The notes beneath the pieces are model-generated. The model saw only the letters and a program-made list of their open reading frames with translations, was not told where the DNA came from and ran no database searches. DNA of 64,000 nt, from positions 43,607,112 through 43,671,111 of the forward strand of contig JARDVH010000106.1 in the NCBI GenBank assembly GCA_030324005.1. Reading direction: 5' to 3'. The stretch comes from Negaprion brevirostris (lineage: Eukaryota). Of this stretch, positions 1,041-33,496 are shown in pieces. The position numbers and the translations under genes are program-made. Position 1 is the first letter of the stretch; each line of letters starts with the position of its first letter.

Positions 1041-1984
1041 TTTACATGTTGCGGCAGTGTGATATCTAATGGCATCTGCTGTTGGGTAGCTTGGTGCCTG
1101 CACCCTTTAGCTCAAAACATTTTTTGTCCAATTAGTTGCTGTGTGAGCAAGTGCATAGCATTGAGGGAAACATGACTTCTGGGAGTCCCTGTAAGAAGGA
1201 CAAGCAACTGAGTACCTCTTTAACCAAACCAGTTGAAGGATCGAGGAGTCAATTGTACATGGATTAAGGTGAGTGAATCCAACAGCAAGTCAGATATCTT
1301 TTAAAAAAAGGGTTGTTAGTTAGAGGCAGAAATAAAAAGTAAAATCTAAAATTTTTTTTAAAATTTAAATATCCCAACAATTAGTACTGTACCTGAAGGA
1401 ATGTGATCCTGACACTGCTAGTTTTTAGAGCCAAAGGGATTGATTGTCAGTAATTAACAATTAACTAGTTAAGCTTATGTTTGAAATGACAAGACTTGTT
1501 GTAAACTTGTATCCATTGCTCAAATCCAGGAACTTCATGATAGTCAGTTCATCGTAATGGTGAGGGGAAAAAGTGAAAAGCTATTTTCGCAAAGCTAATA
1601 GTGCAGTAGTGCATCTTGCACAGTAACCATTGGATATTCACACTGAACATGTGCATCTATTACTCACCTTGAAGTTGTACAATTTACACAAACAACAGAG
1701 CTCCATTAGGTTCTCAAAGCAAAATCTTAATTAGAAAACAAAGGGTGGAACTTTCCGCAAAAAAATTATGACGTAAACNNNNNNNNNNNNNNNNNNNNNN
1801 NNNNNNNNNNNNNNNNNNNNNNNNNNNNNNNNNNNNNNNNNNNNNNNNNNNNNNNNNNNNNNNNNNNNNNNNNNNNNNNNNNNNNNNNNNNNNNNNNNNN
1901 NNNNNNNNNNNNNNNNNNNNNNNNNNNNNNNNNNNNNNNNNNNNNCCAACCCCCCCCCCCCCCCCCCCCCCCCACCCCCCCACT

Positions 1985-2320
1985 TTCCAGGACCAACTGC
2001 CGCATTCCTTTGGTAGTCCCTCAACAATCTGTACCTTCTGCCACTCACTAATTCCAATCTCTCAATGGATGCTTTTAGAACCGTTCTTAGCCTTTATCAT
2101 CACCACTTACGTTTCCTTTGTCCAAGTACAGATCCCCAACCCAGCCCTCCATAGTATAAATCTTGTCCAATTTTCTTTGCCTTCAGCTCTAATGAAGAGT
2201 CATCCTGACTCGAAGCGTTGGCTCTTTTCTCTTTCCACAGATGCAGTCAGACCTGCCGAGTTTCTCCAGCTTTTTCTGTTTTTGTTTCAGGTTCCAGCAC
2301 CTGTAGTATTTTGCCTTTAT
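1985..2320 (+). mobile_element. Penelope-like pLTR (family A) with decayed minimal hammerhead motif at 2185-2223
   Basis: TATAAA, then AGCT-CTAATGA-A-GAGTC(ATCCT)GACTC-GAAGCGTT-GGCT, then the tail cagatgcagtcagacctgccgag...ccagcacctgtagtattttgc. The tail is shared with copies at 15632, 32300 and 33400. Confidence 0.7.
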
Positions 2321-15210: not shown

Positions 15211-15631
15211 AACAGTCAGCATCTCAGGTGTTTAATATTATAGCAGTTGTTGGGATCTACAAAGGAATTAAAGAAATATACAAGGACCCAAGGCATTAAC
15301 CAGCGACCTCTGTCTTAAAATCTTTGAATATTTCCCAGAACCTTAGTTCAGCATGTGACCATTTGCAATAAAATTGAAGAGAACAAAGGATTACGTTCAA
15401 GGCAGTTGCCCCGGAACAATGTTTGAACAACTGGAGATGCAGCAGATGCATGTACATGGCTGCAGTGCTGTGCAGAGATTTTTACACTAAGTGCTACATC
15501 AGTCTATCACACATTAAGAAACTCATGAAATTAAAACATTAGATATGATCTTATGAACTGAGCTGATTCAAGTAATTGTTATGGTTTCTGGAGATTTCTA
15601 CAACTATGTGTCATCAGGTGAAGAGAAATTA

Positions 15632-15858
15632 AAAGCAAAAACAACATGCTGGAAAATCTCAGCAATTCTGATGGCATCTGTTGGAAGAGAATAGAGCCAA
15701 CGTTTTGAGTCTAGATGACCCTTTGTCAGAGCTGCTGTGATGAAGGGTCACCTAAACTCAACATTAGCTCTATTCTTTCTCTACCAATGCTGTCAGACCT
15801 GCTGAGATTTTCCAGCATTTTTTTTCAGATTCCAGCATCTGCAGTATTTTGCACTTAT
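15632..15858. mobile_element. Palindromic Penelope-like mini-element (family A) with two inverted hammerhead motifs and a 13-bp TSD
   Basis: The direct repeat TGAAGAGAAATTA lies at 15619-15631 and 15859-15871. Arms of about 90 bp are inverted about 15733. Confidence 0.8.
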
Positions 15859-16794
15859 TGAAGAGAAATTAGAATTTGCTATTTTTCTCTCTTGGAGACT
15901 GTGATGGGGGTTGGAGTGGAATTGCACCTTCAGGCTTTTTATGGTAGTTGAATTAAGTACTGGTGGCTAGAGAAACTAAAATTCTGGAAGACTACTTCTC
16001 CAACCACCTTCCTTTCGCAATCTGCAATTAGCAATCTGCTCCAAAATAAATCAGCTTTCATTACAAGTCACAGTGCTTCCATGGAATTGATAAGCAGCTC
16101 CTTCCTCCCCACAAAGCTGCAAGGAAAAAAATGCTTGATGTATGTTTCTCAATAGTTTGCTTAGTAGGCTTGTTTGGCAATAGATTTTTGGGTTTCTCAG
16201 CCCAAAAATAGCAGGAAAATCAGCAGAAATTAAAAGCACACCAAAATGGAATGCATCACTAAAGCAGGATAGGCCAACAAATAATGATTGTAAGTTAAAA
16301 TATTCTCACCATTTTTAATGTCATTCCTTGGCCAATGACGCAAGCTTTTCCAGTGGTAGAAATAACATCATAAACTGATTGAAGGACATTTTTCCACATG
16401 TATTTATTTCCTTATTGTTTTAAAGGCATCTTTGCTTATGAATATTGTGTGCCATTGCTACAATCTTCTTTAGTGCTTATCTTCATCTTTTTGAGAAATT
16501 GGGATCATTTAGTGTCCATTTTTTGGGCTCTATAATTGACCTTAAGAGTTCCAAAGTGCCATCTGTGTTATGCCCATATGCTTCTGGGACAACTTGTGCA
16601 GGATGCCATATTACTGAACGTGGTAATGTATGCTTACTTAATGGCTACTGAAAGCAGTCAAAGCAGACAGATCATGTCCATCAAAGCGCAACACTAACAT
16701 AAGTCGGCCATTATGAAACTCAGCTTCAGCTGATGCTCTTTTATAATCTCACGGAGCTGAACACATGTTTAGCAGCAGGTTGGACCGGGTTTAC

Positions 16795-22149: not shown

Positions 22150-22300
22150 TTTCAAAAAATGATGGACAAATTCAACAAATCAGGCAGCGTCTGTGGAGAG
22201 AGAAACAATTAACATTTCAAGGTCACATGACCTTTCTACAGAACTGAAAAGAGATAGAAATGTGATGAATTACATACTTGGAGAGGGGTGGGGGCGTGAG
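22150..22300 (-). mobile_element. Penelope-like pLTR fragment (family A variant) with decayed hammerhead motif at 22207-22245
   Basis: The minus strand reads AGTT-CTGTAGA-A-AGGTC(ATGT)GACCT-T-GAAATGTT-AATT, followed by ctctctccacagacgctgcctga. Confidence 0.55.
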
Positions 22301-22899
22301 GCAGAATGGTAAGTCAGTGATAGTTTGGAGTTGAGGAGAGATTGATAACCGTGTGTCAGGGGACATGAAACAGAGGGTCTGTTACTGGTGCTCCTACTTA
22401 TCCAATTGTAACCAGCTGATTGCAACTGAAAAACAAGGTGATCACCTCTCCCCAATGATAGCACTGACAGCTGTTTATCTTTGTTGAGAATAATACTGTG
22501 CTCCAGCAATGCCAGAAAAATATTTTTCAAGTGGCACTTCGTATTGTGTGAGGCAACAGTGCCACACTTACATTCCTGCTCTTGTTGGGATTGTGCTGTA
22601 ATGTAAAAGAAGATTAATATATTAAATAAATAGCTGTAGTTTCCACCCCTTTCTTTAAATTGATTATACAAAATGCTGCAGTTGCCCAGTACAGTTTTTC
22701 ACATGTATAGTGACTGTTGTTTAAATATTGTCAGTATGCTGTATATGAGAATTGTGTAACTCGTTTAGATATTATGCTTTTGGTCATGCATTGTACTGTG
22801 CCGTTAATAAATTTTAGTTCCTTGTTTGGTTACTGTCAGCCAATTTAATAGTGTTAGGGCCTTACTAAAATGGCTATAGCCATGAAAAATGCATAAAAC

Positions 22900-27959: not shown

Positions 27960-28740
27960 TCATCAGAAGATTCAGGTCAATGTATCCAGGTTTTCTGATG
28001 ATACAAAGATGGTGGAAATAGAAGCTGTGTACTCATTGGGGTATTTTAAAAGACTTCTGGATGAGTACATGGGATTTAATGGGATTGAGGGTTATAGGTA
28101 GGCCTAGTAGGTAGGGATATGATCAGTGCAATTTGTGGGCCGAAGGACCTGTTTGTGTTGTAGTTTTCTATGTTCTAAAAGCTGCAAAAAATTAGGTTAA
28201 GAGTGGGCTAAGTTTGCACATGGAGTGCATTGTACTAAGTGAGAGGTTGATAACATTGAACACTGTCTCAATGGGCCCTGTGGCCTTCGCCTGCTCCCAT
28301 TTCTTATCCTGTTCCAACAGTTTGTTTTCATTTCAGATTTTCAGCATCTGCAGTATTTGCTTTTCTGTTAATATTTAGAAGCCAATAAGGTTAATGTAGT
28401 AGAGGGTTTGAACAATTATAAATGAACTTCCTAGTAAATAGGTAGAAATATTTCCTCTGAGTATAAGTTAGTATTGAGAGGTTATTCATCTTAGAATTGT
28501 TAATGTAAGGGCGGTTAGGAGAAATTTGTTTGCACAGTGAACTTTTGGGAATGTGGAATGTCTTGCAACAAGGAATTGTTGAAGAGGAGACAATTCTTTC
28601 TTTTAAGGGAAATATGGACAAATATTTGAACCATATGCTGATATACAGCTTTGAGAAGAGTTTTAAATTGCTTTAGCACATAGCCAACACAGATATAATG
28701 GTCCAAATGGCAGCCATCTATCCTAAAGTATTTCTGGTAA
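27960..28740 (+). mobile_element. Cluster of short CR1 3' fragments plus a Penelope-like tail (28320-28368)
   Basis: SRFSDDTK, FKRLLDEYM, gggccgaaggacctgttt tail and ttcagattttcagcatctgcagtatttgc. Confidence 0.6.
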
Positions 28741-31519: not shown

Positions 31520-33390
31520 TAAGGTAGATCTATTAGTTAAAGATAATACAATGGCAGTTAAAGAAAAGCATGTAATTGACATTAAGATACAAACCACATG
31601 CAATGAGATCAAGGATAAAAAGGGTTGATTAGGTTAATAGGGTTAATTTACAAACCACTCAGTAGTGGATATAAATTAGAATAAACAAGAGAAATCTATG
31701 AGATGAATAAAAGTGATAAGTGTGGGAGATTTCAACTACCTCAAATTAACTGGCAAGACAAAGGGAAAATGGTGGTATCTTCAGAATATATTTTAGGATG
31801 TTATCTTTACCTAGAATGTCAGAAGCCCAAGAAGAGAGGAATCAATGCTGTGTCTGGTAACAGAGCAGTGAAAGCTAGCAAATGCACTATTGCAGGTTTT
31901 TAAAACAACTAATTATAAAAGAGAATTGTGCCCGAGGACTGGCAGACAACTAATGTTAATCCTAAATTTAAAAAGGGAAATAGAACAAGTCAGTGCTTGA
32001 AAAGTAAGTGGAATCTTTGCTCAAAGATGATATTGAAAAGCTTTAGAAATCAAAAATAAAATAAAACCAGGTGGCATGATTTCTAAAGGGAGTGCAAGAT
32101 TTGATGAACACTACTGAATTCTTTGAAGGAGTAACAGTTGTAGTGGACAATAGTAAGTATAATATATTTGGATTTTTGAAAACTTTTTGATAAGGTATCA
32201 CATTTGTCAAATTGCCTAAATTGGAATCAGGGGACTGGAAGCAAAATGGATAACAATCTGTATTGTAACAAAACAGAAAACCAGTGCAAGGATAAGAGGA
32301 AAACGAAAAATGCTGGAAAATCTCAGCAGTCTGACAGCATCCATGGAGTGAGAATAGAGCCAACGTTTTAAATCAGGATGAGCTTTGTGGTCTGACAAAG
32401 GGTCAGCATTTTCTGTTTTTCTGTTTTCCTGTTTCAGATTCCAGCATCCACAGTATTTTGTCTTTTATCATGGGGATGAAAAGTATTTAATCTGGCTAGT
32501 AAAAAGTGAGAAGTAGTGTTCCAGGGATTGGTGTTTGGACAACTGTTCATAATTTAAATTAATGATTTCAACCCAAAAATTAGGAAGTGATTTCAAAATT
32601 TTTAGACGACACTGAATTGGGAGATATAGTTAATACAATGCAGTAATGCATAGAGGAAGAAATCAACCAACTCAGTAGGACATAATTGGCAAATTAATTT
32701 CAATACAGATAAGTGTAAGGTAATGCATTTTGATGGGAAAAATAAGGTAATTTAGAAGTTGGATAATAATCGTCTGAATGCAGCAGAGGAGCAAAGAGAT
32801 CGTGGGGGTACAGCTAAATAAATCTTGAAATGTAGCAACCCAAGTTAATAAGTCCATCAAAAAAAGTAAGCCAAGCACTTGATTCCTTTGTAATGGGATA
32901 GAACTATAAAGCAGAGAAGCTGTGTTAAGCATATTGAAATTTGGTTAGAATACATTTAGAGTATTGCGCATAATTCTGGTGCCCCATATTATACAAAAGA
33001 TTCAGAGGCACTTGGTGCAAAAATGATTTATAGGGATGATGCCAGAAATCAGAAGATCTACTTTTTAAAATTTGTTTAAGAGGATGTTTCCCTAGAAAAG
33101 AGAAGACTGAGTGATGACCTAAGAGGTATTGAAGGCAACGGAAGGGTTACTAGGATAAANNNNNNNNNNNNNNNNNNNNNNNNNNNNNNNNNNNNNNNNN
33201 NNNNNNNNNNNNNNNNNNNNNNNNNNNNNNNNNNNNNNNNNNNNNNNNNNNNNNNNNNNNNNNNNNNNNNNNNNNNNNNNNNNNNNNNNNNNNNNNNNNN
33301 NNNNCAGGTTAAAATGGGTGAAAGGGGACGTGTATGAAGTAAATGTGCCAGTGTGGACCAAGTGAGATGAGTGGCTGGTTTGTATGCCCT
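31520..33390 (+). mobile_element. Old, internally deleted CR1 LINE
   Basis: GDFNYPQINW-like stretch (gggagatttcaactacctcaaattaactgg), VPEDWQTTNVNPKFKKG, SVPGIGVW and FNTDKCKVMHF. Confidence 0.75.
32300..32469. mobile_element. Partly deleted palindromic Penelope-like mini-element (family A) nested in CR1
   Basis: The left arm matches 15632-15733. The right arm starts tctgacaaagggtca and jumps directly to the tail. Confidence 0.7.
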
Positions 33391-33399
33391 CCCTGGGTG

Positions 33400-33496
33400 C
33401 CCTCTGATGCAGGTCATCCAGATTAGAACTGTTAGCTCTATTATCTCTCAAAAGGTATTGTCAGACCTGCTGAGATTTTCCAGCATTTTTGCTTTG
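33400..33496 (+). mobile_element. Penelope-like family A fragment
   Basis: ctgatgcaggtcatccagattagaactgttagctc...gtcagacctgctgagattttccagcatt. Confidence 0.6.

Follow-up and report, generated by a model that had tools for sequence, protein, structure and literature searches.

The 227-bp insert at 15632-15858 of the window (the whole 64,000-nt stretch of Negaprion brevirostris DNA analysed here) is an imperfect head-to-head palindrome, each arm of which holds the remnant of a minimal hammerhead. With a probability of roughly three in four, it consists solely of two head-to-head 5′ ends (pLTR, hammerhead, tail) of an abundant, endonuclease (EN)-bearing Penelope-like element (PLE), and such units are made anew at each landing by priming from both nicked target strands. 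Functionally, the unit is a dead insertion and one copy of a known insertion type.

Structure and abundance of the inverted unit

The 13-mer TGAAGAGAAATTA at 15619-15631 has an exact second copy at 15859-15871, with the 227 bp between them. The first-pass annotation had described a perfect 13-bp target site duplication (TSD) around a unit inserted in one event. The duplication is indeed exact, and a single insertion event is supported. The two arms were also correctly described as inverted with almost no spacer. The stretches 15639-15704 and 15760-15825 are 79% complementary, and the symmetry axis, expected at about 15733, lies at 15733/15734, where one base is common to both arms. The arms are unequal in that the plus arm alone has approximately 33 additional bases at its 3′ end. 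The fold of the whole unit is predicted at -113 kcal/mol (z -12.5), and none of 200 shuffles was as good.

At the left end of the insert, contigs of two other organisms pass from the flank into the arm, and about 4% of their letters differ. Since this joint is present there, the insertion is considered old and shared. None of the joints listed, beyond which there are 327 more, represents an empty orthologous site. The window holds several further copies of the element (Table 1). Fragments of the same element type that are more divergent, and older, are found at 22153-22301 on the minus strand and at 28312-28364 on the plus strand.

Table 1 Coordinates of the insert, its parts and related copies in the window
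Feature	Position	Strand	Remarks
Longer copy of the element	1967..2320	+	3′ UTR, TATAAA box, hammerhead arm, tail
Left TSD copy, 13 bp	15619..15631	+	Sequence repeat
Short arm	15632..15733	-	Penelope-like 5′ end; begins with base 1 of hammerhead stem I, ends at the inner ('short') 3′ end; tail absent
Minimal type I hammerhead remnant	15695..15733	-	4-bp stem I, core box, extra A, 5-bp stem II, palindrome replacing stem III
Axis/junction	15733..15734	.	31-nt class (5/35 junctions), near-blunt, one shared base
Long arm	15734..15858	+	5′ end of the same element, extending to the outer ('long') 3′ end
Second hammerhead remnant, more decayed	15734..15769	+	C3>G (15737), GAAA box minus two bases, stem II pair broken (15755)
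One-sided PLE tail, ~33 bp	15826..15858	+	Tail as defined in PMC3846280 and PMC11167929
Right TSD copy, 13 bp	15859..15871	+	Sequence repeat
Second inverted pair	32300..32468	.	Off-centre junction, arms beginning at positions 8 and 85
Solo short arm	33402..33489	+	Start at the hammerhead edge

The unit is far from unique in this genome. When the whole unit was used as a query against the 2.69-Gb assembly, 4999 first-look candidates were obtained. The 40 that were scored are this locus and 39 others, all of the same structure, at 77-86% identity. A blind sample of 60 stretches of 10 kb (494,244 non-N bases) holds 31 arm matches and five head-to-head pairs. A rough extrapolation from this sample to the genome gives about 140,000 arms (94,000-197,000) and 22,000 pairs (7,000-52,000). 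The same arm is found in related subfamilies, with an inverted partner adjoining it in 3 of 29 cases.

Parent element and hammerhead remnants

A walk upstream from the arm crosses a TATAAA box, then a 3′ UTR, and finally enters an ORF. In a majority translation of 22 of the 30 longer loci, and also in single copies, motifs of a reverse transcriptase (RT) are accompanied by a CX4CxxC linker and a GIY-YIG domain that has residues of the CCHH type; the linker is also present in the single copy L147. The Penelope-like origin proposed earlier is supported. The arm is continuous with an ORF for RT, Cys-linker and GIY-YIG, and the autonomous partner that the annotation suggested looking for is directly attached in the longer copies. 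The Pfam match to GIY-YIG is weak (E 0.055, below the cut-off), and nothing was matched by Pfam in six decayed ORF pieces nor in two RT pieces. A stingray protein homologous to the ORF (P0001; 44% identity, E 2.6e-27) has Atlas neighbours in which HTH_animal, GIY-YIG and RVT_1 are present.

In longer copies, the arm lies downstream of the 3′ UTR. In L162, which is 5′-complete, it lies upstream of the ORF: the sequence of this copy opens at the hammerhead edge and reaches the ORF by way of the tail. The arm hence represents both the 3′ pLTR of the element and its 5′ terminus. L162 is interrupted within the RT domain and is directly followed there by another arm in the same orientation. The features of EN+ PLEs are present, namely an RT followed by a C-terminal GIY-YIG, a tail of 30-40 bp at one end, an inverted 5′-truncated copy and a short TSD. 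The Neptune and Nematis clades are characterised by a CX2-5CxxC linker that separates RT from EN (PMC8557442). By this linker motif, and not by a tree, the parent would be a PLE of the Neptune or the Nematis type.

The minus arm reads from 15733 to 15695 as the annotation had stated. Its claim of two minimal hammerheads holds for the layout, which each arm keeps as a remnant, and fails for integrity, as neither arm of this copy has an intact catalytic core. The minus-arm remnant carries G8>A (15724) and G12>A (15706), both of which are CpG decay relative to the family majority, and the would-be cut is predicted between 15699 and 15698. The plus-arm remnant has lost C3, half of the GAAA box and a stem II pair (Table 1). 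The core was compared with column counts over 200 arms. The majority sequence of the family, as given by these counts, shows every part of the minimal core: the core boxes, which had been anticipated for a consensus, the extra nucleotide, stem II and a palindromic 15.2-16.2. For the extra A, the precedent of the CChMVd hammerhead had been put forward. A closer one is offered by PLE hammerheads with a nucleotide after A9 (PMC4209133).

In related subfamilies, the hammerhead pattern has 29 matches vs 0 for a control pattern; N7 and loop II are free to vary between the subfamilies, and stem II has G-U in some and A-U in others. The stem I pairs are C-G (24), U-A (3), C/A (3) and U-G (2), with a Fisher p of 0.034 for covariation, which is modest and was obtained among related copies. 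Both boxes, the site and stem II are retained together in 12 of 121 arms, and two of those keep the palindrome too. Scoring against Rfam, proposed as a check, gave no support: the hammerhead family was unmatched in the window stretch and in four other loci (L006, L139, L206 and L208), two of these four having an intact core. The top Rfam matches were microRNA models, far under their gathering scores. A microRNA identity is dismissed, as these matches mirror the long hairpin only.

Folding predictions give stem I and stem II a pairing probability of 0.000 inside an intact-core palindrome and of about 0.02-0.06 in a lone arm. In the nearest-neighbour model, which cannot inform on the tertiary fold, the dimer comes to -10.1 vs -13.4 kcal/mol for two monomers.

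Another kind of minimal-hammerhead repeat was encountered in the sampled loci. It has different stems, an AGCT palindrome replacing stem III and several intact cores (L033:2034, L089:1527, L114:2351 and minus strand, L184 minus strand). At L089:1645-2134, two divergent arms are arranged in tandem, 361 bp apart, and adjoin a hammerhead of this second kind.

Ends, junctions and origin of the inverted pairs

The 3′ ends fall at two sites, at about 97 and about 133, in all samples. A short arm is combined with a long arm in 47 of 51 head-to-head rows (49 distinct), a share that is inflated, like that of the 31-nt junction class, because 31 pairs come from unit-query loci, 30 of which were selected for likeness to this copy; pairs from blind sampling number five only. 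Two long pairs, L133 and L140, are exceptions. Among ten pairs picked solely for a long arm, no partner extended beyond position 115. TSD-like repeats (score of at least 8; TSDs of 10-16 bp) flank 15 of the 51 rows, or 13 of 49 without two duplicates, vs 0 of 150 mismatched-flank controls. On solo short arms, TSDs were found in 2 of 28 cases vs 2 of 200 in the control, so that they are unable to fix the 5′ end. Their rarity on solo short arms and their frequency on pairs look as if a clean TSD required both strands to be primed.

Among 38 arms from the blind stretches and the window, 15 have their 5′ end between -10 and +15; in 18 it lies further inside, and five reach upstream. In 28 solo short arms, the identity to the element is 0.32 at position -3 and steps up to 0.61 one base later, at position -2, the A that opens stem I. 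Of 36 long copies, 24 have an intact TATAAA box, which starts 30 nt above position -2. This distance is the canonical TATA-to-start spacing. In long copies, the stretch from TATAAA to stem I (about 2150-2190 in the window) resembles a 3′ splice site, and may be compared with the Penelope intron of D. virilis. The 5′ wall might consequently be read as a splice junction or other processing site instead of a transcription start, which would leave the remaining model unchanged. This reading is given a very low probability. Against it, the AG itself is retained in solo arms (identity 0.61 at -2 and 0.54 at -1), these arms have no upstream exon in common, and the spacing of TATAAA is that of a start. 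In its favour are the branch-like motif, pyrimidine tract and CAG above stem I, and the D. virilis intron, which stops at the 5′ edge of helix I (PMC4209133). A transcription start at the wall is the preferred reading.

None of 41 internally starting arms visibly starts at the cleavage site, as judged by eye and with several of them N-bounded. Ribozyme-cleaved RNA is rejected as the template on this ground. Three loci (L033, L042 and L125) each have an arm whose first base is position 36, immediately below the cleavage site, and which lies beside the apparent ends of another small mobile element.

Junction length was defined as the distance between the two stem II anchors. The 35 pairs fall into 13 junction lengths, the most frequent of which (10/35) is a spacer-free perfect palindrome sharing the self-complementary AGCT. 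In the five blind-sample pairs, the axes lie at 54/51, 92/8, 0/-6, 9/43 and 30/24. Arm comparison revealed no lineages specific to left or right arms. The non-CpG distance is 0.140 within copies vs 0.149-0.158 between copies, a value as low being reached in none of 2000 permutations (41 of 48 pairs measurable). The ten copies with the modal junction comprise several subfamily genotypes, mostly matched within a copy. At the diagnostic position 18, the arms differ in 10 of the 33 pairs having C or T on both arms. Furthermore, in L138, L143 and L147, an ORF-truncated copy adjoins a short arm in inverted orientation whose sequence is not a mirror image of that copy. Because of these three copies, two cDNAs are needed.

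The annotation had left two options, recurrent inverted-pLTR products or a distinct non-autonomous family of palindromic, ribozyme-centred units transposing as such. The overall size and the near-stem I axis are common to many loci, and a single junction class accounts for 10/35, as a distinct family would lead one to expect. Nevertheless, such a family is very improbable. The 13 junction classes and the differing axes in the blind sample argue against it, as do the lack of an arm-specific lineage and the mixture of subfamily genotypes within the modal class. Moreover, the unit has no upstream TATA box, its hairpin is predicted to block the ribozyme fold, and the autonomous partner is attached in longer copies. 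The tabulation of axes recommended earlier thus speaks against a fixed-axis family, and the varied junctions and axes agree with recurrent products. The clustering of axes at the edge of stem I is attributed to the template RNA, which likely begins there, rather than to a master copy that fixes the axis. On the varied junctions, the absence of arm lineages, the mixed genotypes and the non-mirroring long copies, considered together, a palindromic master is rejected and the formation of each insertion from two cDNAs is favoured. The two exceptional long pairs, three pairs with internal symmetry and the small size of the blind sample count against this reading.

Both arms could also derive from a single cDNA that runs off the 5′ end of the RNA, snaps back or switches onto itself and self-copies the second arm, with later central deletions diversifying the junctions. 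Subfamily variants are indeed usually common to both arms, and the 26-nt junction class could correspond to a 2-nt hairpin loop. Symmetric internal axes, as in L034 (23/25), L087 (54/51) and L116 (30/24), would fit as well; these three pairs are equally explained by fold-back synthesis or by later central deletion. However, the short end also terminates solo and long copies at the 3′ side, which marks it as a priming site and not as a stop site. The inverted arms in long copies fail to mirror the adjoining sequence, and the differences at position 18 would be unexpected in a self-copied arm. A spacer-free perfect palindrome would probably be difficult to obtain via an intramolecular hairpin. 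On balance, fold-back is unlikely, and priming from both target strands is preferred.

By this preferred route, transcription would be started by the TATAAA box in the pLTR, at the A that opens stem I, and the uncleaved hammerhead would form the first 39 nt of the RNA. The GIY-YIG domain would nick both target strands 10-16 bp apart, as suggested by the TSDs and by in vitro results published for an anole PLE. Each nicked 3′ end would then prime internally, one at the short site (~97) and the other at the long site (~133), and the one-sided tail would be the difference between them. With both primings on the 5′-proximal pLTR, both cDNAs would run off the 5′ end of the RNA after 100-135 nt. They would be joined mostly by annealing of the terminal self-complementary AGCT, and otherwise by sloppy end-joining. 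A transcript of the product is predicted to fold as a long hairpin, blocking the ribozyme fold. Somewhat short of an even chance, the first four bases of the RNA may be doubly used: as the TATA-placed 5′ strand of hammerhead stem I, and as the self-complementary cDNA end that zips together two run-off cDNAs, one per target strand and with different start sites.

Studies on the anole Poseidon element PAc showed that both target strands are cut and extended, that two internal RT start sites bound the tail, and that the main template is uncleaved RNA (Frangieh et al. 2024; PMC11167929). The use of the start sites was equal between the strands in that in vitro system (PMC11167929), which counts against the mechanism proposed here. 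PAc belongs to the Penelope/Poseidon clade and its ORF starts at stem II, whereas the shark element has the CX2-5CxxC linker. The available part of that report contains no model for inverted insertions.

Comparison with described systems

The unit had been put forward as a candidate for an undescribed system. This does not hold, since inverted pLTRs with a one-sided tail and TSD, pairs of hammerheads on opposite strands and an extra nucleotide after A9 are already in print (PMC3846280; PMC8557442; PMC4209133). The report on Pen2a_Av describes an inverted pLTR with a 31-bp tail on one inverted pLTR, TSDs of 8-10 bp and a TATA box (PMC3846280). The shark insertions resemble these EN+ PLE insertions in their inverted 5′-short pLTR, their tail of 30-40 bp on one arm and their pLTR TATA box (PMC3846280; scheme in PMC8557442). 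They differ in TSD length, which is 10-16 bp here, in having both arms minimal with no ORF between, in the accumulation of 5′ ends at the first base of stem I, and in the commonest junction, which shares AGCT.

Minimal hammerheads have been reported in Xena, Poseidon and Neptune elements of fish (Cervera and de la Pena 2014; PMC4209133). The additional nucleotide of PLE hammerheads is described in the same study, together with motifs that occur in pairs on opposite strands and dimers whose activity is low. In contrast to those hammerheads, the two motifs described here abut without a spacer and have mutated cores.

Non-LTR (type I) retrozymes are non-coding, related to the pLTRs of PLEs and equipped with a type I hammerhead, and one chondrichthyan is among their hosts (bioRxiv 10.64898/2026.07.22.740005). 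They form head-to-tail tandems with a complete ribozyme in consecutive units, whereas the unit described here is head-to-head and both of its cores are broken. A non-LTR retrozyme was ruled out, as head-to-tail tandem units with a complete hammerhead are lacking here.

In the literature as searched by title and start of abstract, neither a description of such stubs in sharks nor a twin-priming model for PLEs was found. A shark family that already bears a name, for instance in Repbase or Dfam, may well exist. How tandem and inverted PLE structures arise is called undefined in PMC8557442.

As an object, the copy is ordinary, and its value is the modest one of a mechanistic footprint. Hairpin stubs of this kind could be misread as MITEs or microRNA precursors. 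The rules for their ends, i.e., a 5′ wall at TATA+30, the pairing of a short with a long arm and AGCT-sharing junctions, give specific predictions for the in vitro PLE system that has become available. If true, zipping by the terminal AGCT would account in a single step for two features of PLEs, the inverted pLTR and the one-sided tail, with thousands of footprints in this genome.
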